NCBI GenBank assembly: GCA_964016885.1
Contig: CAXHJY010000254.1
Span: 1 to 64,000, forward strand
From: Eledone cirrhosa
Taxonomy: Eukaryota
Direction: 5' to 3'
DNA: 64,000 bases
In this document: piece by piece, positions 961 to 62,012 of the stretch
Layout of the letters: the number at the start of each line of letters is the position of its first letter
How positions within the stretch are numbered: position 1 is the first letter of the stretch
The notes under the pieces: model-generated
The model's database searches: none
Told to the model about the DNA's origin: nothing
What the model saw: only the letters and a program-made list of their open reading frames with translations
Program-made: the position numbers and the translations under genes

Positions 961-992
961 AAGATCAAAAGATGGTTAAAGGAGTTCCATGT

Positions 993-1060
993 ATTTTATT
1001 ATGCGCATTTCAAAAACAAACATCATCATGCAATAATATTGTGTTTTCATCAGATAAAAC
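993..1060 (-). ncRNA. Type I hammerhead ribozyme in the PLE family B pLTR
   Basis: Minus strand: GTTTTAT-CTGATGA-(AT-rich bulged stem II)-GAAA-TGCGCA-TA-ATAAAAT. 7-bp stem I, palindromic minimal stem III (ATGCGCAT), AUA cleavage site. Confidence 0.85.
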
Positions 1061-1158
1061 AGGAGAACATGATATGAAAGGCTAAAAAACACTTGTGGAT
1101 AGTGCAGTTTTAAATCAACATATGCAAAAGTGGTTTTAGATTGATGAGTGATATTGGG

Positions 1159-1583
1159 AAAAATATTTTATTTAGAGGGGGGGGGGGGGGTGGAAAGGAT
1201 GAAAAAGGGGAGGAGATGAGAGGGAGAGATGGGTGATAGAGAGAAAGAGATAGTTTTTATAACTGAGAGAAGATATATTGTTTTACATAGAGAGGTTGAA
1301 AACCGTTGGAAGATAATGTATAAATTAAAAGAATTTGAAAATTAACGAAGGGAAGATATGTACGAGGAAAAGATATTTTATTTAGGGAGGGGGGGGAAGG
1401 ATGAAAAAAGGGGGAGGAGATGAGAGTGAAGGTGGAGAGGGAGAGATGGGTGATAGAGAGAAAGAGATAGTTTTTATAACTGAGAAAAGATATATTGTTT
1501 TACATAGAGAGGTTGAGAACCGTTGGAAGATAATGTATAAATTAAAAGAATTTGAAAATTAACGAAGGGAATTTATGTATGAA
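1159..1583. repeat. Tandem duplication (about 210 bp x2) in the PLE family B 3' UTR
   Basis: GAGAGATGGGTGATAGAGAGAAAGAGATAG...GAAAATTAACGAAGGGAA occurs twice in tandem. Confidence 0.9.
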
Positions 1584-3363
1584 GATAGAGAGAAAAAATA
1601 ATAATTGTGGATGAATATTCCAACGTCAAAAAAAGTGTATGTTGATAAGTATTGTGGCAATTTCAAATTAACGAAGAGAAAAAATTATTACGGTTTGTGT
1701 GTAGAAGGATTTGAGAAAAATAATGTGAAGTTAAAGTTTGTATATTGAATGAATTGATAATATGTGCGAATAAGAGTTAATATGTATTAAGAATGAGTCG
1801 TTGATGGGGAGAAAAAAATAATAAATTAAGGATGAAATTGAGATTAAAAAGTTTTATGATAGAGAGAAAAAATAATAATAATTGCGGATGAATATTCTAA
1901 CGTCAAAAAAACAAATGCATATGTTATGAAGGATTTTACAAGGTGAAGATAGAAAGAGGGTAATGAGTAAACAAGTATTATAGAGTGTATAATGCCCTTT
2001 GAAGTAAGGTAGGAAGATGGGTATATTTTAAAGAGGTGTATGTATATGTGCCTTTGAGAAAAGATTCTAAATTGATAAAGAATTGAATATTAACTGTATA
2101 CTTTGTGAAAAGTCCTCTGGAATTTATGCAGGCAGATAGAAAACAAATCTGTACGTCTATTTATTATAGAATCTAGATAGAGATAATGGTAAATTTTTCA
2201 TTTAGGCAGAGATTACAGATTTTAGATAGAGCTGTTCAAGTATGAGGATGCAGAAGAAACCTTCTTCCAAAAGATGGTATATTTAATGTTTTTGTCTTTC
2301 AAGGACCATATGAGTTCTGAGAGAGCCGTGTTGGTTCTTTTAAGTTTGTATTTGAAAGATGAATGGTGATTATAGAGACGAGCTTTAAAAGAGGTGGAAG
2401 TGGAGCCAAAATAGGTGAAGGAATTGGTGCTTGTTATAACTTTACATTCATAAATTAAGTTTTTATCGAGACAATGGTTGTTGAGAGGACATTTATTTTT
2501 AATGCGGCAGTTGCAATTAGAGAGATTATTAATGAGTGACCTAGTGTTATCTATAGAAGGAATTGGACTGGAGAAGTTGTTTGCGATAGGAATAATAGGA
2601 ATAATAGTTTCTTGATTTAGAGTTGGATTATGAACATTTAGCGAAGTTGTGTTTGACGTTGTATTTGGGTTTACAGAAGTTAGCCTAGGGTTTACAATGA
2701 CGTCGGGAGTACTATTACTGTTATTATGAAATTCAATGTTGGAAGGAAGAGATTTAGTATTTAGTATTTTATTGTTGTGTTTAGAGATGATGTTGGAAAT
2801 ATTGGAGGGATGTAGAATAAGAAAATTTGATGGTGTGTTTGTTAAATATTTTACTATAGATATGTGAGGGAGGGAAGCATTTATTTAAGGCACTAAAAAA
2901 TAATTAGGAATATTGTTATTAATAGAGATGGAGAAAGGAGCATTATACCAGATTATGTTTTTGTATCTAGGTCTTTTATTAAAATTATTGGAATGATCAT
3001 GATTAATTATTCTACTGTAAGTTTTTCTAGAATTTGTTTCTTTACTATATTTGATTTTATCTGGATAGCCGGCTTTAGAAAGTGCGTTATTATAGTAATT
3101 GGCGTTAGCATCAAAGATGTTTTTATTAGAAGATATGTTAGATATTCTTTTTCCAATATTACTAACTATAGCATTCTTGATATTGGTAGGATGGTTAGAT
3201 TTAAAGTTAACATAATTTAGGTTCTCATTGTTTTTATGGTAAGGGTAATATAGGCCAGTGTCAAGATTAAGAGATACATCCAAGAAATTAGCTAGTTTGA
3301 TACTATTATCAAATTCAATTACCCTTACCATAAAAACAATGAGAACTTAAATTATGTTAACTT

Positions 3364-3500
3364 TACATACAGACTAGCTGGACACTCACTGTAAAGTGTC
3401 TAGTGAAAAACTCGGCACATGTACATATGTATACATGTGTGTATTTATATGCATACTAGTACTTCCGTATACATATGTAGATGTACACTTTAACTTAATT
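3364..3500. repeat. Unclassified interspersed repeat; inverted copy at 63861-63997
   Basis: Reverse complement of 63861-63997 with few differences. Confidence 0.85.
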
Positions 3501-9908: not shown

Positions 9909-10854
9909 ACTAGACATGAAAAATGCGCAAGCTCAAAAGTGCCACAGAATGTTATAATAAACCTTCAAAAGTGTGGGACTAGAGTTGTTGCTAAAAAATA
10001 TTGTAATCATTATATATCGTACATTCTGTGGCATCCTTTATAAAAATAGCTTAAACCAACGAAGCCTTTATTTTTACGCTATTTCACTTAGTTAATTCTT
10101 AGAGTGTAACATATAAAAATAAATACATCTATGTTTAATGTAATAACAGCTATAAATAATTACGTAATATTATTATCATATACTCATAGTAACAAAATAA
10201 TTGTGTTGAAACTTAATATGATGCTTATATGAACGATCAAATCTATAATGATAATTTCTTAAATATACTAATAGTAAAATAATTTAGTTATCTATTGTTA
10301 CATTTTCATAGAACTATAATATTAACAATCGTATTGCATTATCAAATTTTTATCACTACAAACTTTCATATTGGAATTACCTTAAGCCACTTATTATTAC
10401 TTCGCTTTCGTACTTTTACAGCTGTAGATATTGCGCTGTATCTTATATCTAATATCAATATCTCGTGGTAATTTGCATGAGGTTTATTAATAACTTTAAT
10501 ATGAAATGTATTATACAGGGCTGCGGAGTCGGCCAAAAATTGACTGGCTCCAACTCAGGATCCGATACTCCATTATTTCCTAAATTTCAGCTCCGCAGCT
10601 CTGTTATTATATTAATTAATTTATTTTATAGTTGTAAATGATATTTTTATATGTTACACTCTAAGAATTAACTAAGTGAAATAGCGTAAAAATAAAGGCT
10701 TCGTTGGTTTAAGCTATTTTTATAAAGGATGCCACAGAATGTACGATATATAATGATTACAATATTTTTTAGCAACAACTCTAGTCCCACACTTTTGAAG
10801 GTTTATTATAACATTCTGTGGCACTTTTGAGCTTGCGCATTTTTCATGTCTAGT
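9909..10854. repeat. 213-bp apparently perfect inverted repeat (9909-10121 / 10642-10854) around a 520-bp spacer; foldback/MITE-like or inverted duplication
   Basis: ACTAGACATGAAAAATGCGC...CATATAAAAATA mirrored by TATTTTTATATG...GCGCATTTTTCATGTCTAGT. Confidence 0.92.
10516..10603. mobile_element. 88-bp hAT-type MITE
   Basis: TIRs CAGGGCTGCGGAG / CTCCGCAGCTCTG; 8-bp flanks GTATTATA / TTATTATA (7/8 match, TSD-like). Confidence 0.7.
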
Positions 10855-13229
<2,375 letters not shown>

Positions 13230-16200
13230 AAAATTTCAGTTATCAATAATGTAGTGATAATATATCGTTACGTTAGAGATGAACAGCGTACGTGCAGGTT
13301 TGCTCAACGAGTATAAATTATATTCCGGAGAAATGTAGAAAGGATGAATATAAAATGAAAGTGCTTTTGTTAAAAAAGGAATTTATTAGGTATTGACATA
13401 TGTTTCTGTAACAGACCGAATACCTATGTATCGCTGCTTGCGTAATCATATAATGTTAGCAAGTATTCGATAGCAAATGTATAATCAGTTGTCACTTCTT
13501 CAGAGATTTTGGATAAACTGGATAAAATCAGAAAATTGAAGTATTTATATTAGTAAAAGAGGAAGGAACAGAGGGGATAGAATATGACAGATGGTAAAAT
13601 AATTTACTGCTAAACAAGTATATAATGGGTTTTTAATGAGAATACCATGAGTAAATCTAAATAAGAATTTTGGGAGTGCCGATTTTAATCTCTACTTGAC
13701 CAACTGGACAGTGGACAGGGCTGGTCATTTGGTGCAGTAGTATTAATCATAAAGTGTCAATTGGGGAAGGGGGAGATTTCGATTGCTACTAAATAACATC
13801 AATGCTCGTAGTCAGCTGGTATTTGCACTAGGGAATTGAATCAAAAAATCAGAAATCTCATTTTATCTATAGCAGTTTGTATTAAAAGGTAAATAATAGA
13901 AGAGTTGATAGAATTAAGACTAATAAAGAATGTTCATATCTATTTTGACAATCAAACGGGGATAGAGACAGGCGTTCAATCCTGGTAGTATTTATAATAT
14001 GAAAATGTAGATTTTAAGCGATGGTTACAGTATAACGATCGCTCTATTCTGTTATTTAATAAAATGTTTTTGGATTTCATAATACAAAATAATTCTACAT
14101 TACATAATCTACAAAATTCCTGTCCATTGGTATATGGGGGGCAGACGCTATTATATCCCATTTTAGGTGAAATTGTTGGTTATTTTCACGCAGCTGCCAA
14201 GCCTTGTCTGCGAGTGTTGTTACATAACGCTGGTTTTCATGTTTTATCGAATAACGATGTCTATAAAGGCGTGATTTAAAGGAGGTGGCTGTAGATCCCA
14301 CATAGTACCACTTTTGTCTATCCGATTCGATAGTACATTTGTATACGATGTTGCGTTCAAGACACTGATTGTTCAACGGACACATTCCTGGTTGGACACA
14401 GTTGCAATTACAATTTTGCGTTGTTGTATTGCCATGGATGGGTTGATGAGGTTGCTTATGTAGGACAGGATGTTGTTTGTTGTTTTGTGATGTTATAGCT
14501 AATGTTTTACGTGTATTGTTATGTGTTGGAAGGCGTTTATACAACCGTTTTGCGTTAAGCATTTTTATATGTTGTTCAATATTAGGGGCGGTTGAATATG
14601 AAAGTCGGATGGTGTTAGGGTTTAAGATTTTATTATATTTATGTGATGTTGGAAAGTGTTTTCTAACTAATCGAAAGAATTTTGAGGGTAGATTGGTTTT
14701 AATAAATTTGTTATAGACCGGGTTGTACCAGATATACTCCTTACATCGCCTTCTGTTTGGTGGTGTGCGACTATTATTGTGTCTATTGCGGTAGTGTATG
14801 TATGGTGGTGATTCTGTGCTATTTCTACTCCTATGTGAATTATTTTGGGTGTTTTGGTGATCATTGACTATATACTCTATATTATCTAGGTGACCGGCTT
14901 TCCTAAGTGCATCATCATAATACTCGGCATGTTCTTTGAAGGTTTGTTGGTTGGACGATAGGCGGGAGATTCTAAGAGAAACATTTCTAGGGATGGATTT
15001 AATTATAGAGAGTGGATGGTTAGAACTCGTATTTACATATTTAAGGTTCTCATTTAGTTTATGGAACGGTTTAATCGTATCTGTATTGAGATTGAAAGTA
15101 ACATCAAGGAAATTGACCTCTTTGAGGTTATATTCAAATGTAATATTTAATCCTAGTTCTTTAAAAGTTTTCTGATATTTTTACGCATCCTTTCTAAATT
15201 CTGGTTATTCATATTCTTAACTAATAGGAGCGCATCGTCACGGTAAATTCCACCGTGGAGATCCTTGAATTTTCCTTGTAATCTGTGGGTGATATAAATT
15301 CCCACAAGATCTGTTACTTCCGCCGAATCATTAGAACCCATAGTGATATCAAAATTAGAAGGTCTATCTTTGCGAACCCAGTAGCTATCATCGAATTTAA
15401 CTATAGTTTTTCTCGCTTCCATAATAATTTTAATTTCAGCATCCGTAAGGTCGGAATTATCCTTAGCGAACGAAAGAGCTTCATGTAGAGTATCAGGTGA
15501 AATTGAGGAATAATATTCATCAATATCAAACTGAATAAATTTTGATTTTTTCTTATCAGTAATGTTGTTAAACCATCTTATTGCTTCATGAGTGTTACCC
15601 CATAGTTTAATCTCTACTTTAACCTTAACTTGGGGGATAATTCTGTCTAGTATATATTTGCTAATTTTACCTATATCAGATTTAGAGGGGCATATAAGTC
15701 TAATATTAGGGTTAGTATCGAAGTTTACCTTGTGGTCCTTCAGGTTGAAGGATGGTATAGCTGGTGTTAAGGGTTGCGTTCTATCGTCAATACAAAGTTT
15801 TTTAACAATATCACATGCCGAGTTGTTGATGTTTTTAAGTGTGGCTTCATTAGTTTTCCTGTATTTTTTATGCAATTCCTTACGGATGAAGTTATTGTAA
15901 GTGTCCACATCCATGGTATATACGTTTGATGTTTTGTCTGCTCTAACAATAACTCCATTGGCGTTTTTTTAGATTATTGAGCAGTGCCGTGATGTCATTC
16001 TGTAGTTTATTGTTCTTACGTTTGTAAATTTGATCTCCATGATCATATCCATTAGGTCTTGTTCAAATGCATCCAAAAGTGGGTTTGAGGGTGGGTTCTT
16101 GTAAGATTTAAATCCAAATTTATCCTTGTTAAGATCCGATGTTTGGTTTATACGGCTTTTGTCAAAATGGAATGTTTTCCATCTGATTCGTCGAATAAAA

Positions 16201-16340
16201 TCATTGGTCCTTCGTATCATACCTAGAATATATTCCCTTTTTGCCTGAATAGGTATGTTTTTTAACGACATATCCAATTGGTGCCTTTCCATTTTAGAAG
16301 CGTATGCTGAATTAGTTGCTCAACTGTATAGAAGATTAAT
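13230..16340 (-). mobile_element. PLE family A copy 1, full 3.11-kb monomer
   Basis: ATG at 16292 (MERHQLDMSLKNIP), RT motifs IQFDIDEYY / MG / IYRDD, CNC..CPL..C linker, IVYKC..YYVGST GIY-YIG, stop at 13976, about 750-bp 3' UTR ending in the TA tract. Confidence 0.95.
13976..16292 (-). CDS. PLE RT + GIY-YIG endonuclease polyprotein, broken by four single-base homopolymer indels; 772 aa in consensus
   Basis: ORF pieces 15969-16292, 15153-15914, 14095-14562 and 13976-14161 join when corrected against copies 2 and 3 (2317 nt +1+1-1+1 = 2319). Confidence 0.88.
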
Positions 16341-19226
16341 AAAATTTCAGGTTATCAATAATGTAGTGATAATATATCGTTACGTTAGAGATGAACAGCG
16401 TACGTGCAGGTTTGCTCAACGAGTATAAATTATATTCCGGAGAAATGTAGAAAGGATGAATATAAAATGAAAGTGCTTTTGTTAAAAAAGGAATTTATTA
16501 GGTATTGACATATGTTTCTGTAACAGACCGAATACCTATGTATCGCTGCTTGCGTAATCATATAATGTTAGCAAGTATTCGATAGCAAATGTATAATCAG
16601 TTGTCACTTCTTCAGAGATTTTGGATAAACTGGATAAAATCAGAAAAATTGAAGTATTTATATTAGTAAAAGAGGAAGGAACAGAGGGGATAGAATATGA
16701 CAGATGGTAAAATAATTTACTGCTAAACAAGTATATAATGGGTTTTTAATGAGAATACCATGAGTAAATCTAAATAAGAATTTTGGGAGTGCCGATTTTA
16801 ATCTCTACTTGACCAACTGGACAGTGGACAGGGCTGGTCATTTGGTGCAGTAGTATTAATCATAAAGTGTCAATTGGGAAGGGGGAGATTTCGATTGCTA
16901 CTAAATAACATCAATGTTCGTAGTCAGCTGGTATTTGCACTAGGGAATTGAATCAAAAAATCAGAAATCTCATTTTATCTATAGCAGTTTGTATTAAAAG
17001 GTAAATAATAGAAGAGTTGATAGAATTAAGACTAATAAAGAATGTTCATATCTATTTTGACAATCAAACGGGGATAGAGACAGGCGTTCAATCCTGGTAG
17101 TATTTATAATATGAAAATGTAGATTTTAAGCGATGGTTACAGTATAACGATCGCTCTATTCTGTTATTTAATAAAATGTTTTTGGATTTCATAATACAAA
17201 ATAATTCTACATTACATAATCTACAAAATTCCTGTCCATTGGTATATGGGGGGGCAGACGCTATTATATCCCATTTTAGGTGAAATTGTTGGTTATTTTC
17301 ACGCAGCTGCCAAGCCTTGTCTGCGAGTGTTGTTACATAACGCTGGTTTTCATGTTTTATCGAATAACGATGTCTATAAAGGCGTGATTTAAAGGAGGTG
17401 GCTGTAGATCCCACATAGTACCACTTTTGTCTATCCGATTCGATAGTACATTTGTATACGATGTTGCGTTCAAGACACTGATTGTTCAACGGACACATTC
17501 CTGGTTGGACACAGTTGCAATTACAATTTTGCGTTGTTGTATTGCCATGGATGGGTTGATGAGGTTGCTTATGTAGGACAGGATGTTGTTTGTTGTTTTG
17601 TGATGTTATAGCTAATGTTTTACGTGTATTGTTATGTGTTGGAAGGCGTTTATACAACCGTTTTGCGTTAAGCATTTTTATATGTTGTTCAATATTAGGG
17701 GCGGTTGAATATGAAAGTCGGATGGTGTTAGGGTTTAAGATTTTATTATATTTATGTGATGTTGGAAAGTGTTTTCTAACTAATCGAAAGAATTTTGAGG
17801 GTAGATTGGTTTTAATAAATTTGTTATAGACCGGGTTGTACCAGATATACTCCTTACATCGCCTTCTGTTTGGTGGTGTGCGACTATTATTGTGTCTATT
17901 GCGGTAGTGTATGTATGGTGGTGATTCTGTGCTATTTCTACTCCTATGTGAATTATTTTGGGTGTTTTGGTGATCATTGACTATATACTCTATATTATCT
18001 AGGTGACCGGCTTTCCTAAGTGCATCATCATAATACTCGGCATGTTCTTTGAAGGTTTGTTGGTTGGACGATAGGCGGGAGATTCTAAGAGAAACATTTC
18101 TAGGGATGGATTTAATTATAGAGAGTGGATGGTTAGAACTCGTATTTACATATTTAAGGTTCTCATTTAGTTTATGGAACGGTTTAATCGTATCTGTATT
18201 GAGATTGAAAGTAACATCAAGGAAATTGACCTCTTTGAGGTTATATTCAAATGTAATATTTAATCCTAGTTCTTTAAAAAGTTTTCTGATATTTTTACGC
18301 ATCCTTTCTAAATTCTGGTTATTCATATTCTTAACTAATAGGAGCGCATCGTCACGGTAAATTCCACCGTGGAGATCCTTGAATTTTCCTTGTAATCTGT
18401 GGGTGATATAAATTCCCACAAGATCTGTTACTTCCGCCGAATCATTAGAACCCATAGTGATATCAAAATTAGAAGGTCTATCTTTGCGAACCCAGTAGCT
18501 ATCATCGAATTTAACTATAGTTTTTCTCGCTTCCATAATAATTTTAATTTCAGCATCCGTAAGGTCGGAATTATCCTTAGCGAACGAAAGAGCTTCATGT
18601 AGAGTATCAGGTGAAATTGAGGAATAATATTCATCAATATCAAACTGAATAAATTTTGATTTTTTCTTATCAGTAATGTTGTTAAACCATCTTATTGCTT
18701 CATGAGTGTTACCCCATAGTTTAATCTCTACTTTAACCTTAACTTGGGGGATAATTCTGTCTAGTATATATTGCTAATTTTACCTATATCAGATTTAGAG
18801 GGGCATATAAGTCTAATATTAGGGTTAGTATCGAAGTTTACCTTGTGGTCCTTCAGGTTGAAGGATGGTATAGCTGGTGTTAAGGGTTGCGTTCTATCGT
18901 CAATACAAAGTTTTTTAACAATATCACATGCCGAGTTGTTGATGTTTTTAAGTGTGGCTTCATTAGTTTTCCTGTATTTTTTTATGCAATTCCTTACGGA
19001 TGAAGTTATTGTAAGTGTCCACATCCATGGTATATACGTTTGATGTTTTGTCTGCTCTAACAATAACTCCATTGGCGTTTTTTAGATTATTGAGCAGTGC
19101 CGTGATGTCATTCTGTAATTTATTGTTCTTACGTTTTGTAAATTTGATCTCCATGATCATATCCATTAGGTCTTGTTCAAATGCATCCAAAAGTGGGTTT
19201 GAGGGTGGGTTCTTGTAAGATTTAAA
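16341..19226 (-). mobile_element. PLE family A copy 2, 5'-truncated, head-to-tail with copy 1; contains the 482-aa ORF 17088-18536
   Basis: Near-identical to copy 1 at about 3111-bp offset; breaks at GATTTAAA, about 180 nt into the ORF. Confidence 0.95.
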
Positions 19227-22200
19227 CCTGAAATTTTATTAATCTCCTATACAGTTGAGCAACTAATTCAGCATACGCTTCTAAAATGGAAAGGCACCAA
19301 TTGGATATGTCGTTAAAAAACATACCTATTCAGGCAAAAAGGGAATATATTCTAGGTATGATACGAAGGACCAATGATTTTATTCGACGAATCAGATGGA
19401 AAACATTCCATTTTGACAAAAGCCGTATAAACCAAACATCGGATCTTAACAAGGATAAATTTGGATTTAAATCTTACAAGAACCCACCCTCAAACCCACT
19501 TTTGGATGCATTTGAACAAGACCTAATGGATATGATCATGGAGATCAAATTTACAAAACGTAAGAACAATAAACTACAGAATGACATCACGGCACTGCTC
19601 AATAATCTAAAAAACGCCAATGGAGTTATTGTTAGAGCAGACAAAACATCAAACGTATATACCATGGATGTGGACACTTACAATAACTTCATCCGTAAGG
19701 AATTGCATAAAAAATACAGGAAAACTAATGAAGCCACACTTAAAAACATCAACAACTCGGCATGTGATATTGTTAAAAAACTTTGTATTGACGATAGAAC
19801 GCAACCCTTAACACCAGCTATACCATCCTTCAACCTGAAGGACCACAAGGTAAACTTCGATACTAACCCTAATATTAGACTTATATGCCCCTCTAAATCT
19901 GATATAGGTAAAATTAGCAAATATATACTAGACAGAATTATCCCCAAGTTAAGGTTAAAGTAGAGATTAAACTATGGGGTAACACTCATGAAGCAATAAG
20001 ATGGTTTAACAACATTACTGATAAGAAAAAATCAAAATTTATTCAGTTTGATATTGATGAATATTATTCCTCAATTTCACCTGATACTCTACATGAAGCT
20101 CTTTCGTTCGCTAAGGATAATTCCGACCTTACGGATGCTGAAATTAAATTATTATGGAAGCGAGAAAAACTATAGTTAAATTCGATGATAGCTACTGGGT
20201 TCGCAAAGATAGACCTTCTAATTTTGATATCACTATGGGTTCTAATGATTCGGCGGAAGTAACAGATCTTGTGGGAATTTATATCACCCACAGATTACAA
20301 GGAAAATTCAAGGATCTCCACGGTGGAATTTACCGTGACGATGCGCTCCTATTAGTTAAGAATATGAATAACCAGAATTTAGAAAGGATGCGTAAAAATA
20401 TCAGAAAACTTTTTAAAGAACTAGGATTAAATATTACATTTGAATATAACCTCAAAGAGGTCAATTTCCTTGATGTTACTTTCAATCTCAATACAGATAC
20501 GATTAAACCGTTCCATAAACTAAATGAGAACCTTAAATATGTAAATACGAGTTCTAACCATCCACTCTCTATAATTAAATCCATCCCTAGAAATGTTTCT
20601 CTTAGAATCTCCCGCCTATCGTCCAACCAACAAACCTTCAAAGAACATGCCGAGTATTATGATGATGCACTTAGGAAAGCCGGTCACCTAGATAATATAG
20701 AGTATATAGTCAATGATCACCAAAACACCCAAAATAATTCACATAGGAGTAGAAATAGCACAGAATCACCACCATACATACACTACCGCAATAGACACAA
20801 TAATAGTCGCACACCACCAAACAGAAGGCGATGTAAGGAGTATATCTGGTACAACCGGTCTATAACAAATTTATTAAAACCAATCTACCCTCAAAATTCT
20901 TTCGATTAGTTAGAAAACACTTTCCAACATCACATAAATATAATAAAATCTTAAACCCTAACACCATCCGACTTTCATATTCAACCGCCCCTAATATTGA
21001 ACAACATATAAAAATGCTTAACGCAAAACGGTTGTATAAACGCCTTCCAACACATAACAATACACGTAAAACATTAGCTATAACATCACAAAACAACAAA
21101 CAACATCCTGTCCTACATAAGCAACCTCATCAACCCATCCATGGCAATACAACAACGCAAAATTGTAATTGCAACTGTGTCCAACCAGGAATGTGTCCGT
21201 TGAACAATCAGTAGTGTCTTGAACGCAACATCGTATACAAATGTACTATCGAATCGGATAGACAAAAGTGGTACTATGTGGGATCTACAGCCACCTCCTT
21301 TAAATCACGCCTTTATAGACATCGTTATTCGATAAAACATGAAAACCAGCGTTATGTAACAACACTCGCAGACAAGGCTTGGCAGCTGCGTGAAAATAAC
21401 CAACAATTTCACCTAAAATGGGATATAATAGCGTCTGCCCCCCCATATACCAATGGACAGGAATTTTGTAGATTATGTAATGTAGAATTATTTTGTATTA
21501 TGAAATCCAAAAACATTTTATTAAATAACAGAATAGAGCGATCGTTATACTGTAACCATCGCTTAAAATCTACATTTTCATATTATAATACTACCAGGAT
21601 TGAACGCCTGTCTCTATCCCCGTTTGATTGTCAAAATAGATATGAACATTCTTTATTAGTCTTAATTCTATCAACTCTTCTATTATTTACCTTTTAATAC
21701 AAACTGCTATAGATAAAATGAGATTTCTGATTTTTTGATTCAATTCCCTAGTGCAAATACCAGCTGACTACGAGCATTGATGTTATTTAGTAGCAATCGA
21801 AATCTCCCCCTTCCCCAATTGACACTTTATGATTAATACTACTGCACCAAATGACCAGCCCTGTCCACTGTCCAGTTGGTCAAGTAGAGATTAAAATCGG
21901 CACTCCCAAAATTCTTATTTAGATTTACTCATGGTATTCTCATTAAAAACCCATTATATACTTGTTTAGCAGTAAATTATTTTACCATCTGTCATATTCT
22001 ATCCCCTCTGTTCCTTCCTCTTTTACTAATATAAATACTTCAATTTTTCTGATTTTATCCAGTTTATCCAAAATCTCTGAAGAAGTGACAACTGATTATA
22101 CATTTGCTATCGAATACTTGCTAACATTATATGATTACGCAAGCAGCGATACATAGGTATTCGGTCTGTTACAGAAACATATGTCAATACCTAATAAATT

Positions 22201-22241
22201 CCTTTTTTAACAAAAGCACTTTCATTTATATTCATCCTTTC

Positions 22242-22242
<1 letters not shown>
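19225..22242 (+). mobile_element. PLE family A copy 3, inverted relative to copies 1 and 2
   Basis: ATG 19286, stop TGA 21601-21603, 3' UTR ends about 110 nt short of the copy 1 end and runs into the TA tract. Confidence 0.95.
19286..21603 (+). CDS. PLE RT + GIY-YIG polyprotein with four homopolymer deletions and a 3-nt insertion creating a stop at about 21212
   Basis: ORF pieces 19286-19963, 20154-20909, 21014-21214 and 21278-21697; 2318 nt +4-3 = 2319. Confidence 0.88.
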
Positions 22243-26466
<4,224 letters not shown>

Positions 26467-26468
26467 AT

Positions 26469-28607
26469 ACCGACACTGATAAGAAGGTAGCTTGGAAGTG
26501 TCACTATGAAAGGCTACTAAATGAGGAGAATAAATGGGAGAAAGACAGTCTCCCCCATATCGACCCAATAGAGGGACCAGCAGTGTTAGTCGAGGGGAGT
26601 ATAATAAGTAAGGCAATCAAGGATATGAAGACAGGTAATGCGGCTGGGCCTTCGGAAATAGTTGCTGAGATGCTGAAGGCATCTGGCACGGTGGGACACA
26701 CCATGGTCACTCGCATAGTTAACCATGTCGTACAGAATGGGGTTGTTCCGAAGGACTGGCATAGCAGCATCATTGTTAACTGTTATAAGGGTAAAGGAGA
26801 CGCCCTAGATAGGAGTAACTATAGAGGCATTAAATTAATCGACCAGGTCATGAAGGTCACGGAAAAAGTAATAGCGCAACTAATCAGAGAGAGAATTGAC
26901 CTAGATGAAATGCAGTTCGGGTTTGTGTCAGGCAAAAGTACCACAGACGCTCTTTTCATAGTACGACAACTACAGGAGAAGTTCCTAACTAAAGGTAAAC
27001 CCCTCTACTTAGCTTTTGTCGACTTGGAGAAAGCCTTCGACAGAGTCCCCCGCTCCATTATCTGGTGGGCTCTTAGAAAACTAGGCGTTGACGAATGGCT
27101 TGTGAGGGCTATACAAGCCATGTATAAAGAAACAGTCAGCAAGGTTAGAATTAACAACGAATATAGTGAAGAGTATAGCGTAAAAGTTGGCGTCCATCAG
27201 GGCTCTGTTCTCAGCCCCCTACTATTTATTATTGCCCTTCAGGCTATAACAGAGGAGTTCAAGACAGGCTGCCCATGGGAACTCCTATACGCAGACGACC
27301 TGACACTCATAGCGGAATCAATGGCCGAGCTAGAGAAGAAATTCCAAACATGGAAGCACGGCCTAGAGTCAAAAGGACTTAAAATTAACCTGGCTAAGAC
27401 CAAAGTTCTAGTTTGTAGGAAAGAAAACAAGGCGGCGGTCCCTTCTGGGAAATGGTCGTGCTCGGTGTGTAGGAAAGGCGTAGGTAGAAACTCCATTTTA
27501 TGTCCTAAATGCAAAGTATGGGTGCATAAAAGATGTAGTGGGATCACAGGTAAGCTAACTAAGAACATAGATTTTACATGTGGCTGGTGTTCTGGTGCAA
27601 TAAGTAGCAGCAAGTGCCCACAAAATACTAGCTCTTTCAATTGCGCAGAGGGTTCTATAGAAATAGTGGACAGCTTCCGTTACCTGGGCGATAAAATCAG
27701 CAGTGGGGGAGTGTGCTCTGAAAGTACTGTAGCTAGAGTCAGAACTGGTTGGAAAAAGTTCAGAGAGCTTATACCACTATTAGTTGCTAAAGGGTTCTCC
27801 CTAAAAATGAAAGGCAGGTTGTACGATGCCTGCATACGAACAGCAATGTTGCATGGCAGTGAGACCTGGGCATTGTGTGCAGAGGATATACGCAGACTAG
27901 AGAGGAACGAAGCTTGCATGCTCCGCTGGATGTGTAACAGTAATATACGTGAACGGCAAAGCATAAACGAACTAAGGAAAAAATTAGAGATAAGAGGGAT
28001 CAGATGTTGTTTACTCGAGAGAAGGCTACGTTGGTATGGACACGTGATGCGCATGAAAGTCGATAGCTGTATAACAAAGTGCAGGGCAATAAAGATAGAC
28101 GGTAGCCACGGAATAGGCAGACCTAGAAAAACCTGGGACGAGCTGATAAACTCCGACCTCACACACTTACACCTCTCCAAGACAATGTCACTGGACCGAG
28201 ACCTTTGGCGGTACTCAGTAACAGAGAAGACCCGCCTTGCCAGTAGGCATCTCTAACAAAATACACCCCGTCCCGCCACCACCCCCACCCATCCACACCA
28301 CCCCGTCCTATGTAAAGTTATGTTGGTGCCGCGCCATCCGGGCCGAAACAAATGAGATCGTGTAGGTGTCACGACAAAAAAACACACAGTCCACGCTGTA
28401 ATGTGGCCGTGTAGGCAACACGGTAAAAACCTCCCAGACCCACACTGTAAATGTGGTTGGTGTTAGGAAGGGCATCCAACTGTAGAAAACCTGCTAGACA
28501 GTCCTATGCGAGCAAGACAATCACTCTTGCCTCAAGTGGGACTACCCCCGTCCAAACCCATGCAAGCGTGGAACACGGACGTTAAACGTTGATGATGATG
28601 ATGATGA
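26469..28607 (+). mobile_element. 5'-truncated RTE-clade LINE with open RT frame (26469-28256) and (GAT)n tail
   Basis: NYRGIKL, QFGF, FVDLEKAFDRV, GVHQGSVLSPLLF, YADD, Cys/His finger CSVC..CPKC..HKRC..CGWC, RLRWYGHV, GRPRKTW; the endonuclease domain is absent. Confidence 0.95.
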
Positions 28608-28608
28608 T

Positions 28609-29358: not shown

Positions 29359-30926
29359 TATAGTAATAATAATAAAATTGAAGACTAAAATCCAAAGAGG
29401 GCTCGATAAGGAAAATATATATCAAATATATAAGAACCGAAGAGCAAATATAACAGAGCAAACCGAAGAGCAAATATAACAGAGCAAACCGAAGAGCAAA
29501 TATAACAGATTAAAGTTTAAGCAAAGAATCGCTGCTTTCACCCTTAACGGGATCTTCTGAAACTAACAAAGTCAATCTGTAAACGCCGAACTGGATATTT
29601 CAAAAAACATTGCAACCGGAGGAAGACAGGAAGACGATACTTTGGTTCATTGTGACGTTCGCTGGCAAAGAACGGGAAAAAACGAATAATACGTCATTAA
29701 TAGGAGCGGTGAAAAGCAATTACGCGCAAAGATAGAACCACGTTTATGGTATAAAAGAGGTCGTAGACTAATGTTCTCTAAGTGGTGCATAGAGACGTTC
29801 TCTGGCAATGAACGAAAAAACGAAGATAATAAGTCATATGTGGAGCGTGGAGAACAATAGCACGCAAAAACAAAACCACGTAAATGGTATAGCAGAAGTT
29901 GAAGACTAAAATTCTAACTAGGAGACCGAATGAATCTCCGCTACAGAGTTAAGAACAAAGTAAATAAATACAATACAGAAGTAATAGAAACAAATAAATA
30001 CATACACGCAAACAGATACGTACATACACAAGCATATGCACAACCTTACCATAGGTATACAAAACCACGCACATATAAATATGTGTATGTGTGTATGCTT
30101 GTGTACAAATAAATAAATAATTATATAAACGTATATAAGTAAATAAATATGTATATAACAAGCGCACACACATACCTACAAATAAATACACGAAGGTTCG
30201 GAGACGTAAGTCAACTAAAACAAGAAGTACACATATACACACACCCACCATACGTACGAACCTGCATACTCACGCAGACGCAAAACTCCCATATGCACAT
30301 AACCAAACCCTAAATACCAGAATAGTTAAAATTATACACCATAACAGTCAAATATACGTACGAGAAGGTATACATACCTTCACAAAACATACGGATAATA
30401 TATACTTACCTATGCAAATAAGTAAAGGAATAAACAAAACATATACTTAGCTCCCACATCAAGACGTAAAATATCCACGTATAGATCGTGCTATCCGTTA
30501 GGGTATAACGTGGGGCTGTAATACAGGAAAGTTTTGTGCAATTTATGTTTACAAGCCGAAATTGCCTCAGATTTTTTGTTTAAGATGTGGTCTGTGGCGT
30601 AGAGTATTTCCAGGGCCTCAGCGGCGCAGAGGTCACATGGTCTTTTATTTCCGTTATACGATCTAGCCCTAGCTAGGATCTCCCAGTGTAACTTATATTG
30701 GGTGTGGTTGTCTTTTAGACTCCAGATATAAGCTGAAAGTGACGTCATATTCCTTCTTAGAGGGTAACGAAAAGAATGGGTATGCATGTAAAGACGCTGT
30801 TTGAAACTATTGGCGGTTAACCCTATGTAGGCCCTACGGGACGTGGGTGTTACAACCTTACATTTGTAGACAATGTTACTAGAGAGGCATTTCCCGGATA
30901 GGGGACAGTCAGCCCGATTCCTACAA
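29359..30926 (-). mobile_element. PLE family C, 5'-truncated (GIY-YIG domain + 3' UTR/pLTR)
   Basis: ORF 30491-30934 [33 protein letters not shown], nearly identical to the C-terminus of 60261-61457. Confidence 0.92.
29514..29564 (-). ncRNA. Hammerhead-fold motif with variant core CAGAAGA (family C); copies at 41554-41604 (-), 42469-42519 (+), 59279-59329 (-)
   Basis: AGTTT-CAGAAGA-T-CCC-GTTAA-GGG-T-GAAA-GCA-(9 nt)-TGC-TT-AAACT; all three stems form. Confidence 0.7.
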
Positions 30927-30961
30927 ATTATCATTCTTCAAATTATCATTACTATATATAG

Positions 30962-31102: not shown

Positions 31103-33504
31103 TCTATATATATAAAAATGAATGTATGTTTGTTTGTTTGTCCAAAGATATAAACGGAGAAAGAGAAATCAACGTATAGACAAAGAGTGAGTGAAAGAGC
31201 GAGTGTGAAATTTTTTTAATTAAAGATAATTTCAATAGAATTAGTATTCTCTCTTTAATTTAATATAATTTCAATAGAATTAGTAAATTCTCTCTTTAAT
31301 TTAATATAATTTCAATAGAATTAGTATAGTGTCTGTTTCACATTACTTCCCTTCCACTCCCATTACAGGGAATTCTTTTTCAGCTAGCCCTTAACTAAGT
31401 GCTGTAATTTGATATCTTCATTTCGTCTGTCCTTATTTTCCTGACCTGGACACATACGTGGACCGACATCATTCCAAGAATTGAGAACAATAAACGGTCA
31501 AGTATGTGCCACTTATCGTGAAGCTTGCCAAGAATTAAATCTTCTTGAAAATGATGGACATTGGGACACTTCACTCGCTGATGCATCGAATACTGCTCGA
31601 CCAAAGCAAATACGCACATTATTCTCAATAATATTGACAACGTGCTTCCCATCAAATCCAAAAGATCTTTGGGAAAAATATAAAGACTACATGAGTGAAG
31701 ACATACGACATCGTTTGCGTGCAACAAATCAAAATATGAATATTCAATTCACACAAAATGTGTATAATGAAGCATTGGTTTCCATTGAGGTCATATGTTT
31801 AGCAATCGCTAACAAAACATTGGTACAATTGGGAATGCCTGCGCCGAATCGATCTGTAAACGACATTTTCGATCGTGATTTGCAACGAGAAACAAACTTT
31901 GATGTCGCCGAATTGGGTACATTTGTTCAAACGAATCTTCCCAAATTGCTACCAGAACAACGCATAGTATATGACCAAATTATGCAGGCAATTATAAGTC
32001 AAAGTGTCGGATTGTATTTTATAGATGCGCCCGGTGGTACAGGCAAAACTTTTCTCATTTCACTTATATTGGCAACTATACGATCAGAAAATAATATTGC
32101 ACTGGCAATCGCATCATCTGGAATTGCGGCAACTCTTTTAGATGGTGGCCGAACAGCACATTCAGCCCTGAAATTGCCATTGAATATGCAAATCGCTGAG
32201 ACATCAACATGCAATATTACCAAAAATTCTGGTATAGGTAAAGTACTCCAATCATGTAAAATCATTATATGGGACGAATGTACTATGGCGCACAAAAAAT
32301 CATTGGAAGCGCTTAATAATACGCTAAAAGATTTGAAAGGAAATGAACAGCTCTTCGGTGGCACACTCATTTTATTGTCTGGTGATTTTCGACAAACTCT
32401 ACCAGTTATACCGCGATCAACACCCGCTGATGAGCTTAATGCATATGTCTCAAATCATCAGTTTTATGGCGACACATACAGAAATTAACTTTAAAAAACA
32501 ATATGCGTGTACAACTACAAAATGACGCATCCGCTGAACGTTTCACAAAACAATTGCTGGATATTGGGAATGGGAAAATGGTAATCGATGATTCCACAAA
32601 ATGTATCACATTGCCAACAAACTTCTGTAGAATCACGGCAACCAGAGACGAACTGATTCACAAAGTGTTCCCAAATATTGCGCAGCATTACAAAAATCAT
32701 CAGTGGCCCAGTGTACGTGCTATATTAGCAGCCAAAAACACCGATGTCAATGCCATTAATTTCAGCATTCAAAACGAAATACCAGGCGAAGCGACAACGT
32801 ATAAGTCCATCGATACTGTAATGAATCAAGACGAAATTATCAATTATCCAATTGAATTCTTGAATTCACTTGATTTGCCAGGCATGCCACCGCACATTTT
32901 AACATTGAAAATTGGCGTGCCTATCATCCTTCTCCGAAACATCAATCCACCACAACTTTGGAACGGTACCAGACTTTCAGTGAAAAAGACGATGAACAAT
33001 ATCATCGAGGCTACAATTTTAAATGGAAAATTTAAAGGAGAAGATGTACTCTTGCCACGCATCCCAATCATTCCAACAGATACGCCATTCGATTTCAAAC
33101 GTTTGCAGTTTCCGGTGCGACTTGCCTTTGCAATGACTATCAACAAAGCACAAGGACAATCGCTACAAGTGTGTGGACTAAATTTAGAAAATCCATGCTT
33201 CTCACATGGACAGCTGTATGTGGCTTGCTCACGCGTCGGTAAACCTTCTGATTTATTCGTGTACGCACCTGAAGGAAAAACAAAAAACATTGTGTATCCA
33301 AAAGCACTTCAGTAAAACAAATTAAATGTTCTTATAACGAATTTTCTTTAAATTCGTCAGTCATTCAGTCATTTAAAGATAAATGTGAAAATCAAAAAAA
33401 TAGAAACTAAATTACAGAAGTTTTTAAATAACGATTAAAATGTTAATATTATTCTTTTCTAAATAAGCTTTTTAACACTGAGCGAAGCCGGGTAGCTCCG
33501 CTAG
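31103..33504 (+). mobile_element. Internally deleted Helitron retaining the PIF1-like helicase
   Basis: 5' A|TC start, 3' hairpin (ACTGAGCGAAGCCGGGT) then CTAG|T; helicase motifs DAPGGTGKT, WDECTM, GDFRQ, AMTINKAQGQ, HGQLYVACSRV; no Rep domain. Confidence 0.95.
31451..33315 (+). pseudogene. Helitron helicase, 5'-truncated, one frameshift near 32445
   Basis: ORFs 31481-32488 and 32503-33315. Confidence 0.9.
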
Positions 33505-33710: not shown

Positions 33711-34114
33711 TATATATATATATATATATATATAGGTATATATATATATATATATATAGGTATATATATATATATATATATATATAGGTATATATATATA
33801 TATATATATATATAGGTATATATATATATATATATATAGGTATATATATATATATATATATATATAGGTATATATATATATATATAGGTATATATATATA
33901 TATATATATAGGTATATATATATATATATATATAGGTATATATATATATATATATATAGGTATATATATATATATATATATAGGTATATATATATATATA
34001 TATATAGGTATATATAGGTATATATATATATATATATATATAGGTATATATAGGTATATATATATATATATATATAGGTATATATAGGTATATATATATA
34101 TATATATATATAGG

Positions 34115-34146
<32 letters not shown>
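33505..34146. repeat. (TA)n/GG microsatellite
   Basis: Directly visible. Confidence 0.98.
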
Positions 34147-35825
34147 ACGTTTGGCGCCCCTGATGTCTTGGCGGCAATAAAGGAAATCAAGCATAATTCA
34201 GCAGTAGGTCCCGATAGGTTCCCTGCTTGTGTCTTGAAGGCGTGTCAACACCAACTTGCATCTCCTCTTGCCAATCTGTGGCGGAACTCACTGGATGCTG
34301 GATATGTGCCAGAAAACCTTCTATCCCAGTCTGTTGTCCCAGTTTTCAAAAAGGGAAACAAATCCCTTGCCGTGAATTACCGTCCAATCTCACTCACCTC
34401 TCATATCATTAAGGTATTTGAGAGAGTGGTGAGATCGCGAATGACCCACTTCCTTGAGAGTAACAATATGCTGAACTCCAACCAGCATGGATTCCGTAAT
34501 GGAAGGGATTGCCTGACGCAGCTACTGCATCACTTTGATGACATTTTGAGAGCCTTGGGAGAGGGTTCCAACACTGATGTTATCTACCTTGATTTCAGAA
34601 AGGCCTTTGACAGGGTTGATCATAACATTCTACTGAGAAAGCTGTCCAATATTGGTGTCACCGGAAAGCTGCTGCAGTGGATCAAGAGCTTCCTGTCAAA
34701 CAGAACCCAACATGTTGTAGTTGAGGGAGTCAAATCAAGCCCAGCCAAAGTCAGTAGTGGGGTCCCACAAGGCACTGTGTTGAGCCCACTTCTCTTCATC
34801 ATCTATATTAATGACATCACTGACATCATCAAACACAGCAACATTAAAATTTTCGCTGATGATTCCAAGCTCCAAAAGGTCATCAATGGCGTGGATGACC
34901 GGATAAGCCTTCAGTCAGACCTACTGGCTGTTACCCAATGGGCAGAAAAGAACAACATGTTACTGAACGAAGACAAATTCGAACTGATCCACTTTGGAAA
35001 AGAGGATGCTCTGAAACTCCCGTACTCCCTTCCCTCCGGGGAAACTCTCGTGGCATCTAACAACATCAGAGACTTGGGAGTAACCGTGGACAGCAACATA
35101 AGCTGGACCACGCATATAAGCAGCAAAGTTGACATGGCCCGCAGAATGTGTTCCTGGATCCTCAGAACATTCCAGTCGAGAGATTCCCGCACCATTATCC
35201 TTCTCTTCTCTACTTTTGCCCGACCACACCTTGAATACTGTTGTCCACTGTGGTCTCCCCACACGAAACAAAGTATCATGAAACTTGAAGCTCCTCAAAG
35301 GGCAATCACGAAAAAGATAGATGGCATGTCAGACCTTGACTACTGGGGTCGATTAGAAAACCTGAAACTTTACTCACTCCAACGTCGCCGTGAGCGTAAT
35401 ATTATCTGCATGATGTGGAAAATGTTCCATCATCACTGCCCAAATGATGTTGGCATCGCCTTCAAGATACACCCAAGGCTTGGGCCCCGTGCTATCCGTT
35501 CCATTCAAAAATCTAAATCGCAACTCATAACAACAATACGGCACAATTATTTCACCTCAATCGGCCCTGCTCTCTTCAACATCACACCAGGACACGTCAA
35601 AACAGAAACTGACCACACAAAATTCAAGAAGTCTTTGGACAAATTCCTCCAAGTAATCCCGGACAAACCACCCACACCCGGATATGTCTCCGCAAACAGT
35701 AATTCTCTTCTCGAATGGGCCATGGTGCCCAAATCCTGAATTGAAAGACTTCGCCAGGTGGTGCTATTAAGTTAGACATGGCCTGGGCCAATACTGGCCA
35801 AAACATTTCAATGTTATTCAAAGTT
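34147..35825 (+). mobile_element. 5'-truncated CR1/L2/jockey-group LINE with open RT frame to 35739
   Basis: GPD, NYRPISLT, QHGFR, YLDFRKAFDRV, GVPQGTVLSPLLF, FADD, RPHLEYCCPLWSP, SLQRRR. Confidence 0.92.
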
Positions 35826-37091: not shown

Positions 37092-37096
<5 letters not shown>

Positions 37097-37320
37097 AACC
37101 AGTAAGACCCCGACAGCTGAGCTCAAGCCGTTTCGACGGCTAATTCTGGACTAAATGAACATTTAGGATAAATGTTCATTTAGTCCAGAATTAGCCGTCG
37201 AAACGGCTTGAGCTCAGCTGTCGGGGTCTTACTGGTTCCTATTACCCACTCTACTACCTCAAGTATTGAGTACTTTGGTGCGTTATGGTCCACCTGGTTC
37301 CTTACCACATTTCCTTCGTT
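37092..37320. repeat. Perfect palindrome (74-bp arms 37092-37165 / 37169-37242, loop GGA) made of inverted pLTR-like fragments
   Basis: Arms are exact reverse complements; the right arm continues as the sequence also seen at 28882-29015. Confidence 0.92.
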
Positions 37321-39086: not shown

Positions 39087-39109
39087 ATGTATAATAAACA
39101 ATACAATAT

Positions 39110-39189
39110 AATTACCTCATTACCAGAGGTTTCCCGAATAAGACTAATACGAAAAAAACGTCCTCATTCGTTCGTCGGACAAGGCAATT
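39110..39189 (-). ncRNA. Hammerhead motif with CCGACGA (U4C) core in a 150-bp island
   Basis: AATTGCCTTGT-CCGACGA-A-CGAATGAGG..TCTTATTCG-G-GAAA-CC-TCT-GG-TA-ATGAGGTAATT; 11-bp stem I including G-U pairs, about 9-bp stem II, GUA site. Confidence 0.75.
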
Positions 39190-39290
39190 TAAAACATAGT
39201 GAAATATTTGGAAAGTCTCCAAAAGAAATGCAAAAAAAAATATATATATATAAATAAAAGTAATATAAATTATATATATATATATATATA

Positions 39291-40044: not shown

Positions 40045-40941
40045 TACGAGGTGTGTCAGAAAAGTTCCAAGACTGATGTCACAAAAGATTTTTTTCAAAC
40101 CCAAACTTCACACTAAGAGTTTTCTCCTTCAAAGTAATCCCCTGGAGTCTAGTGCATTTTTCCATCCTTTTCTGCCATGCTTGCATGCACTCCTGGAAGG
40201 ATTCTTCCGGGATCCTCCGCAGTTCCGTCGTCACTGCCCCTTTGATGTCGCCCATGTCTTCAAAAAGGGTCCCCTCTGGGTCGTACTCGAAGATCCATGA
40301 TTCATTACCAGTGATGACTGTCCCTAGCAAGTCTGGTTCGGTTTCAAGACGCTTGAGGATGTCCTGACACACTTGCATATGTCGACCCTTCTGGTCATCG
40401 TTCAGCAGTTTTGGCACCATCTTCGCGCAGACTTTCCGCATGTCCAAATCTTCAGTGAGAATCTTCCAGACGCTGTCCCAATTCATGCCCAGCTCATTTG
40501 CCATCAGTCGAACAGTCAGCCGACGATCGCTACGCACCATCTGCCTGACGCGCTCAACGTTGACTTCAGTCCTGGTTGTTGAGAGCCTTCCACTCCTGGG
40601 GTCATCTTCCACGTCCTCGCGTCCTTCTTTAAACCTCTTGCACCACTCAAAAACACGTGAGCGTGACATCGTCTCATCTCCATACACTTGCTGCAGCAAT
40701 CCCAGTGCTTCTGACGTAGTTTTCAAGTTGGTTCGTTGCTCTGTGCTCATTGCTTGACGACCTGAAACAGAGGATACGTATATAAAATTATGAAGAAAAA
40801 AGTTTGATCGCTGCAGAGAGCTAAGATTACAGTTACATGCTCCAGGGGATTACTTTGAAGGAGAAACTCTTAGTGTGAAGTTTGGGTTTGAAATAAAACT
40901 TTTGTGACATCAGTCCTGGAACTTTTCTGACACACCTCGTA
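40045..40941 (-). mobile_element. Internally deleted mariner with about 100-bp TIRs
   Basis: TACGAGGTGTGTCAGAAAAGTTCC.. at both ends in TA context; ORF 40079-40750 has HTH (MSRSRVFEWCKRFKEGRE..PRSGR), MVPKLL and [14 protein letters not shown] fused to the C-terminus; most of the DD34D domain is deleted. Confidence 0.93.
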
Positions 40942-41382: not shown

Positions 41383-41440
41383 ATATATATATATATATAT
41401 AAAAGAAATAGGATTTCGCTTCATGTTTATATATATATAT

Positions 41441-42539: not shown

Positions 42540-42541
<2 letters not shown>
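41441..42541 (-). mobile_element. PLE family C non-coding 3' segment (41441-42445, -) plus an inverted pLTR piece (42447-42541, +)
   Basis: Similar to 29359-30390; 42447-42541 mirrors about 41532-41626. Confidence 0.9.
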
Positions 42542-42599
<58 letters not shown>

Positions 42600-42825
42600 T
42601 AGTAAATACAATTCCAAAAAAATGTTTTTCTATATATTAAGAACCTTTTAAGAGTAACTTATTCACTATTTCGAAAATTTGGAGGTGAACAACAATTATT
42701 ATTGAATGGCTACTATTTGCAGTATACCAATATAAGGTTGCTGTTACCAATGAAACGGTTGTAAATACCTGGATAAAATCCTTTTTTAATGCTTACCTCT
42801 GTTTTCTCTTTTATCCTTTATAATA

Positions 42826-48796: not shown

Positions 48797-48797
<1 letters not shown>
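46921..48797 (+). mobile_element. Older, frameshifted 5'-truncated RTE LINE
   Basis: ORF pieces 46930-47274, 47500-47997 and 48197-48427 homologous to 26583-28256; (GAT)n tail. Confidence 0.92.

Positions 48798-58272: not shown

Positions 58273-58275
<3 letters not shown>

Positions 58276-59211: not shown

Positions 59212-59214
<3 letters not shown>
58273..59214 (-). mobile_element. 5'-truncated RTE LINE, near-identical to 27700-28607
   Basis: ORF 58668-59105 almost identical to the C-terminus of 26583-28256. Confidence 0.93.
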
Positions 59215-61721: not shown

Positions 61722-62012
61722 GTATATATATGTATATGTATATATATGTATATGTATATATATATATGTATATATATATGTATATGTATATATATATGTA
61801 TATGTATATATATGTATATGTATATGTATATATATATATAGATATAGATAGGTAAATATACACGGGTGTGTATGATTGTGTATAGAAGATTATATTAATA
61901 AGAGGAATTCCAACTTTGTCTGATTTACTCGTTTTATTTACAATCCTTTAAAATATATATAATGGTATTATAATGAAATAGTATGATAGAATATTAAATT
62001 CTAAGTGTTAAT

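Follow-up and report, generated by a model that had tools for sequence, protein, structure and literature searches.

The stretch of DNA analyzed here (the window) comprises 64,000 nucleotides (nt) of contig CAXHJY010000254.1 (assembly GCA_964016885.1) of Eledone cirrhosa. Its G+C content is 29%, and 25 masked TA-rich arrays occupy 19,138 nt of it; the remainder consists of pieces of retrotransposons and DNA transposons. Self-BLAST of the TA-masked window reveals three copies of a Penelope-like element (PLE) at 13230–22243. They are 99.4–99.5% identical and are arranged as <- <- -> within degenerate (TA)n, which bears out an earlier reading of the letters alone (the sequence-only reading). Copy boundaries were refined afterwards by alignment and by inspection of the junctions. 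A bacterial promoter scan was set aside, the sequence being eukaryotic.

The majority unit is 3115 nt long: an open reading frame (ORF) of 2319 nt, encoding 772 amino acids (aa), and a spacer of 796 nt. Copy 1 (13230–16340, minus strand) is a full unit of 3111 nt (3115 by majority), and its ORF at 16292–13976 spans 2317 nt with three one-base deletions and one one-base insertion. Copy 2 (16341–19226, minus strand) is 5'-truncated. It starts 180 nt into the ORF, lacks the first 60 codons, and has two ORF indels. Its uninterrupted stretch of 561 aa (18773–17091, minus strand) extends from the reverse transcriptase (RT) through the linker to the endonuclease (EN). Copy 3 (19225–22243, plus strand) is inverted, and begins 61 nt upstream of the ATG at 19286. 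Its ORF, with the stop at 21603, spans 2318 nt with four one-base deletions and one 3-nt duplication, and its 3' end is 108 nt short of that of copy 1. Copies 1 and 3 both reconcile with the majority ORF, so the claim that they can be corrected to 2319 nt and 772 aa holds.

Copies 1 and 2 are joined seamlessly, without internal duplication. Copy 1 alone has a spacer upstream in the sense orientation, supplied by copy 2 as a pseudo-long terminal repeat (pseudo-LTR). A partial tandem with a pseudo-LTR, an inverted 5'-truncated copy, and a tail at one end: this organization is as described for EN+ PLEs. Both flanks are degenerate (TA)n interrupted by G on the plus strand. The left flank (10854–13229) contains 197 G and 1 C on this strand, and the right flank (22244–26469), of the same polarity, 367 G and 9 C. 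The common polarity is what is expected of one TA array split by an insertion.

The Hydra clade of PLEs is defined by RWK, DKT, a CxCX5C linker, the lack of CCHH, CxxC and CxH around the E and N residues, and (TA)n targets (Craig et al. 2021, PMC8557442). Every protein motif published for this clade is present in the majority protein, and both flanks are (TA)n. SLKNIP is at residue 9, RWK at 37, DKT at 119, FDI at 255, YRDD at 350, CxCX5C at 630, and VY..YVG at 650–666. The linker and the GIY-YIG nuclease of copy 2 are encoded at 17115–17540 (minus strand), with Y651, Y664, G666, R675, H679, E734, and N747 in majority numbering. CxxC at 728 and CxH at 756 flank E734 and N747, and a single Cys lies between the two Tyr of GIY-YIG. 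The EN is C-terminal (650–760), SLKNIP is near the ATG, and the N-terminus has neither a CxC domain nor an EN. A CX2-5CxxC linker has no match in the majority protein. The catalytic FD..YRDD, the CxC linker, and the GIY-YIG are thus where the sequence-only reading had placed them; the C/H residues that it had noted are Hydra-type CxxC and CxH, and not a canonical CCHH finger.

Among 57 aligned rows, the catalytic GIY-YIG residues are kept in 56–57 and the Hydra-type motifs are present in 55–57. DK[TS] is seen in 35 of the 38 long rows and DKG in none of the 38. Membership in Penelope/Poseidon, Neptune, or Nematis was rejected, as neither the CCHH finger inside GIY-YIG nor DKG was found. Naiad/Chlamys, with an N-terminal EN, was rejected likewise, the EN here being C-terminal.

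The predicted structure of the 561-aa stretch has a pLDDT of 73. In a structure comparison of this prediction, residues 1–275 fit RT folds of diversity-generating retroelements (DGR), group II introns, and telomerase with Z of 13–15.8. Telomerase 6zd2 gives Z 14.2 with a root-mean-square deviation (rmsd) of 3.1 over 189 aligned residues. As to the sister relation to telomerase that marks PLE RTs in phylogenies, the fold comparison ranks telomerase chains level with RTs of DGR and group II introns. The C-terminal 142 aa folded alone reach a pLDDT of 92, and the top three of 48,161 chains are I-TevI (Z 9.1, rmsd 2.4, 89 aligned), T4 EndoII (Z 7.1), and UvrC (Z 5.9). The EN was detected by this wide structural search; Foldseek gave no EN match at E 0.001. 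Pfam detected neither RT nor GIY-YIG in two array fragments, and among 20 aligned rows it matched RVT_1 in two and GIY-YIG in one. Sequence searches of PDB yielded nothing useful, a further search gave only weak retron-type RT matches (best E 0.037), and there was no match in phages.

A word-indexed search with the 561-aa stretch found 24 relatives at 31–44% identity, and the full search found 11,520 at E 0.001 and 355 at 1e-30. The best full-length relative is 39% identical; the highest listed identity, 54%, is for a 221-aa fragment. Neighbors in the atlas are clusters of eukaryotic origin in which HTH_animal, RVT_1, and GIY-YIG families occur (top score 0.98). Because all the defining motifs are present, the element is almost certainly a Hydra-type PLE. 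That it is a PLE, of the Hydra clade, and targets TA had been proposed before, and all three proposals are supported, by the RT and GIY-YIG folds, the motif set, and (TA)n on both sides. With 39% identity to the best full-length relative found, the element is a new family of a known clade. A tree of 19 rows gives this assignment no help. It was made with 16 of the 24 proteins of the first search, those longer than 500 aa, and groups the array's family (A), two further families of the window (B and C, see below), and P0001 at 88/99, not starred; it contains no named references and so places nothing.

Age and coding capacity of the copies

The three-way alignment contains 12 one-base deletions, two one-base insertions, one 3-nt duplication, and three substitutions. 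Each difference is private to one copy wherever the three copies overlap. The single-base indels are in runs of at least 3 in 13 cases of 14, and in a run of 2 in the other. Eleven indels lie in the ORF (four in copy 1, two in copy 2, and five in copy 3), as does one of the three substitutions, which is synonymous by reading of the codon. Any pair of copies differs by 1–2 substitutions per 2.8–3.0 kb, which agrees with the youth claimed earlier. The array is very probably recent, and its copies would be either very young or recently homogenized.

The disruptions had been described as copy-specific single-base homopolymer indels. This is right for the single-base events, which are private and nearly all in runs. 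The 3-nt duplication of copy 3 (21210–21212) is not a homopolymer slip; it creates an in-frame TAG at 21212–21214, just before the nuclease. The ratio of indels to substitutions is 15:3 in the array versus 14:200 summed over seven other repeat pairs of the window (5 versus 0.07). Homopolymer errors are reported to persist in repeats after polishing (PMC8812927). The excess of indels, with 12 of the 14 single-base events being deletions in runs, resembles long-read consensus errors left in near-identical repeats. There is good reason to regard most of the indels as sequencing errors, while the 3-nt duplication may be real.

If the indels were real, arising by RT slippage or by mutation after insertion, all three copies would have been dead on arrival. 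That the indels are private to individual copies fits this idea, and the 3-nt duplication looks like true slippage. Most of the long ORFs in other parts of the window have no break, implying that the assembly is not uniformly noisy, although this comparison is biased because the ORFs were chosen for length. The two ratios above and the preponderance of deletions argue the other way. No frameshift interrupts the Hydra-type ORF stretches of families B (1.2 kb) and C (1.05 kb), which speaks against routine RT slippage at 1.5 per kb. Real indels are therefore unlikely to be the general explanation.

With 60 codons missing from copy 2 and an in-frame stop in copy 3, copy 1 is the only candidate for an intact copy. 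Somewhat better than even odds can be given to copy 1 being intact and encoding the whole 772-aa protein from the pseudo-LTR of copy 2. The sequence-only reading called the element probably active; activity is plausible for copy 1 only, and there it depends on the four ORF indels being errors.

Ends, junctions and route of insertion

Both outer ends of the array are 3' ends of the element, joined to TA via 2–3 shared nt, and they are 108 nt apart within the unit. The extension of about 108 nt (the tail) is found at the left outer end (13230–13336, minus strand) and in the tandem junction, and is absent at the right outer end. Such a tail at one end is drawn for PLEs by Craig et al. (PMC8557442). 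Copies 2 and 3 overlap head to head by 2 nt (AA) at 19225–19226. This inversion junction carries a 6-nt palindrome, and the inverted arms are separated by 239 nt of copy 3. Copy 3 has its 5' end 13 nt upstream of the end point of copy 1.

The flanks share a 33-nt sequence, exact at 13190–13222 and 22263–22295 (plus strand) and similar over about 54 nt. The left copy ends 7 nt before the junction, and the right copy starts about 20 nt after it. The 31-mer at 13190 and 22263 occurs exactly twice in the 64 kb. Of 15,911 contiguous cut points in 11 TA arrays of the window, 70 pass the flank-duplication test, as do 29 of 200,000 random left-right pairings. We interpret the sequence as a candidate target-site duplication, the alternative being a pre-existing local duplicate.

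The array as a whole is best explained by one recent insertion into (TA)n that was primed from both DNA strands, with a probability of roughly 0.7. The nuclease would nick the two strands of the TA array about 35–55 nt apart, and both of the target 3'-OH groups would prime internally on the element RNA, one of them at the short end and the other at the long end. A cDNA of 3.0 kb from the short end would give copy 3, and one of 6.0 kb from the long end would give copies 1 and 2. The two cDNAs would meet at their 3' ends and be joined head to head over 2 nt, and gap filling would duplicate the target. A purified Poseidon protein cuts and extends both strands of AT-rich DNA and initiates internally on RNA at two sites bounding the tail (Frangieh et al. 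2024, PMC11167929). In family B, two of the three insertions likewise pair a long end with a short end.

The start of copy 3, only 13 nt from the end site of copy 1, suggests that one multimeric RNA was primed twice (twin priming). If one three-unit RNA served both primings, the first cDNA would be expected to stop near the second priming site, as is seen. Two RNAs with a transcription start at that site would fit equally.

A stepwise build-up would have one copy inserted first, and the others later by insertion into the AT-rich unit junction or by local duplication. The Poseidon protein nicks its own ORF-pseudo-LTR junction DNA (PMC11167929), the junction here is AT-rich, and partial tandems are common among PLEs. 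However, only one or two substitutions separate any two copies, the tandem junction is seamless without internal duplication, and a single candidate duplication encloses the whole array, so that this route is improbable.

Rolling-circle copying of a circular RNA of unit length has been proposed for hammerhead-bearing PLEs (PMC4209133). It accounts for a seamless cDNA of more than one unit, but a circle alone does not explain the inverted copy, and the unit has no canonical hammerhead for making the circle. It has quite a low probability here.

The head-to-head order and the 6-nt palindrome would also fit fold-back self-priming, a model from Penelope elements of Adineta vaga (PMC3846280). Yet the inverted arm extends beyond the 3' end of copy 3, through the tail and a whole further unit, and hence is no copy of the copy 3 cDNA. 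It also lacks the 3-nt duplication of copy 3, has two private substitutions, and the arms are asymmetric by 239 nt. Fold-back is very improbable.

The near-identity of the copies, their read-like errors, and the very repetitive flanks might raise the suspicion that a single genomic copy was written three times from noisy reads. Against such an assembly artefact, the junctions are exact and typical of PLEs (one-end tail, microhomology), diverged copies of family B show the same geometry, and the two flanks share polarity and sequence. Little credit can be given to it.

Several observations weigh against one insertion primed from both strands, or against particular parts of it. Three substitutions are too few to tell one RNA from two. 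The family B copy at 29359–30960 seemingly has long-type ends at both sides. Extended microhomology at the inversion junction was rejected, ranking 197 of 3091, within chance. The test lengths for the flank duplication were chosen after the motif was seen, past 33 nt the duplicates diverge (by one base and in the lengths of TA runs), and local duplicates occur in the TA arrays of the window (five runs).

Hammerhead sequences and neighboring elements

The canonical hammerhead is called universal in the Hydra clade in PMC8557442; it is a trait shared with other PLEs and does not define the clade. A scan shaped on the forms in File S2 of that paper found no canonical hammerhead in the array, and 2–3 elsewhere in the window: canonical ones at 1053–1000 and 62046–62018, and a motif with one mismatch at 39178–39121. 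The array unit thus differs from the clade as described. The same source lists exceptions, Penelope-3_NV with the core only and Penelope-3_ADi with an incomplete 3' end, and the missing canonical hammerhead is therefore only a small extension.

All three copies contain a hammerhead half core, at 22154–22193 (plus strand) in copy 3 and, identically, at 16499–16538 and 13387–13426 (both minus strand) in copies 2 and 1. In it, GAAA, a palindromic stem III, and GUC are bracketed by a stem I of 8 bp, and the place of CUGANGA and stem II is taken by 12 nt. It lies 57 and 165 nt before the two element 3' ends. A half core with an 8-bp stem arises in one of 5000 shuffles, and with 6 bp in 34 of 5000, in a test designed after the half core was seen. 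The local minimum-energy fold is a plain hairpin without a hammerhead stem III, which counts against the half core as a ribozyme remnant. The 751-nt 3' region shows no excess of structure over its shuffles (z 0.14). At gathering scores Rfam had no hit in the window, and 16200–17200 gave none even with E up to 10; since the canonical-looking hammerheads at 1053–1000 and 62046–62018 escaped it too, this negative carries little weight.

Restoration of the core by splicing of an intron was rejected, with success in none of 467 hypothetical GT-AG splicings. Other partial cores in the spacer, a single CUGAAGA near 22078 and a longer-core variant near 21765, have no matching stem I by eye or by scan. 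TTGATAA is seen at the long 3' end, 3 nt before GAAA and without stem II (16341–16362, minus strand; 19225–19240, plus strand). It matches the U3-A8 core variant of PMC4209133, possibly by chance in AT-rich DNA. AATTTTATTA is common to the long ends of families A and B, and this may be chance for the same reason.

The catalytic half of the hammerhead has apparently been lost. If so, self-cleavage would not be needed for the movement of the array's family. Poseidon insertion without a need for hammerhead cleavage is described in PMC11167929. It can be speculated that family A is a currently mobile Hydra family without hammerhead catalysis, with the ribozyme stems kept, which made the array in one insertion, by twin priming on a three-unit RNA and with a target duplication of 33–54 nt. 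This full combination is tentative and, taken together, rather doubtful.

Family B, the second Hydra-type PLE, has three insertions in TA (29359–30960, 41440–42541, and 59264–61524) that are 88–94% identical. Its hammerhead core is CAGAAGA (U4 to A) in all four occurrences. Its 3' region contains a 138–140-nt tandem repeat, its tail is about 92 nt, and the longest copy has YRHD instead of YRDD. Family C, the third Hydra type, is represented at 962–3368 by a 5'-truncated copy with one stop and a short inverted piece at the 5' junction. It has a canonical hammerhead with a long stem II at 1053–1000. The ORF remnants of B and C are 33–39% identical to the array protein at the amino acid level. 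Two short non-coding islands in TA arrays (61845–62092 and 39094–39240) carry Hydra-style hammerheads on the minus strand, the canonical one at 62046–62018 and one with the core CCGACGA at 39178–39121. They are single units without an ORF, and are probably the 3' ends of further families.

The array was suspected by the sequence-only reading to mobilize the nearby hammerhead islands. This is not supported: the array has no nucleotide match with the eight other window segments tested and has no canonical hammerhead. B and C have ORF remnants of their own and are best taken for other families, whose 5'-truncated copies would have been moved by the protein of the respective family. Nothing links the two islands without an ORF to the array. 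No cross-mobilization among PLE families of A. vaga is reported in PMC3846280.

The window contains other elements. An RT ORF at 26331–28608, which may be RTE-like, has a PHD finger immediately behind its RT core (Pfam RVT_1, PHD) and ends in (GAT)n. Its relatives are at 42825–44263, 46929–48797, and 58274–59214, and its 3' 70–250 nt recur about ten times. A second uninterrupted RT ORF (34114–35739, 541 aa, RVT_1) is 5'-truncated at a TA array. A PIF1-like helicase in two frames lies between TA arrays at 31445–33315, and is possibly a Helitron remnant. A mariner-like element at 40047–40939 has 101-bp terminal inverted repeats at 96% and Mos1-type helix-turn-helix domains. Two inverted pairs, 9910–10121/10642–10853 (100% over 212 nt) and 62785–63044/63115–63374 (98.5% over 260 nt), abut TA arrays and have no match to the PLE families. 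At 37096–37240, bordering an island of 225 nt within a TA array, lies a perfect palindrome whose arms measure about 70 bp and whose loop is 4 nt; it may be a head-to-head end of a retroelement.

Comparison with known systems

The making of tandem and inverted PLE arrays and the choice of microsatellites are stated as open in PMC8557442. A very young and nearly error-free array with readable junctions and a candidate target duplication in TA constrains the insertion mechanism. If the array did come from one twin-primed RNA, it would be direct genomic evidence for the origin of PLE inverted arrays from a single RNA that is primed from opposite strands of the target, at two fixed internal sites. 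The array further provides a candidate enzyme of the Hydra clade and a natural experiment on the importance of the hammerhead; according to the PAc paper of 2024, no full-length PLE protein had been purified in active form before that of its Poseidon element (PMC11167929). The element type, the arrangement, the tail, and the TA preference are already described, so the gain is a good specimen and no new system. What is added is the readable duplication, the coincidence of breakpoints, and the broken hammerhead.

The closest known system is the Hydra clade (PMC8557442), with which the element shares a single ORF, RWK, DKT, the CxCX5C linker, the lack of CCHH, CxxC/CxH around E and N, and the (TA)n target. 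For Penelope-13_HM of this clade, the listing gives an inverted and 5'-truncated copy at the 5' end, as in the array. The N-terminus resembles Hydra-1_Obim by eye, although the sequence clearly belongs to another family. Hydra-clade elements are generally shorter than 3 kb, and complete families in File S1 are 2084–2729 nt versus 3115 nt here, a difference due to the 796-nt spacer. The tail is about 108 nt here and 30–40 bp in the description by Craig et al. (PMC8557442).

Penelope/Poseidon elements (Drosophila virilis Penelope, Anolis PAc, and A. vaga Pen2a) resemble the array in the order of RT and GIY-YIG, the partial tandem with an inverted copy, the one-end tail, and the AT-rich target. 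They differ in carrying CCHH and DKG, and their 3' ends are inside the ORF start, whereas the array 3' ends fall about 48 and 156 nt before the ATG. The A. vaga copies have duplications of 8–10 bp, versus a candidate duplication of 33 nt or more here; PLE duplications are reported to vary in length (PMC9977147). Non-LTR retrozymes resemble the islands as hammerhead-bearing sequences derived from PLEs (bioRxiv 10.64898/2026.07.22.740005). Retrozymes are tandem non-coding units, whereas the islands are single 3' ends and the array is coding.

The proposed route has its nearest likeness outside PLEs. No account of twin priming in PLEs was found in a search of papers available without subscription. 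The L1 twin priming of Ostertag and Kazazian (2001) is said to produce a head-to-head junction with microhomology, a small overlap at the breakpoint, and a flanking duplication. In L1 5' inversions, two target 3' ends prime two regions of RNA (PMC2246262), as is proposed here. L1 differs in its AP endonuclease and poly(A) tail; in the array, both primings would use fixed internal sites of a multimeric RNA.

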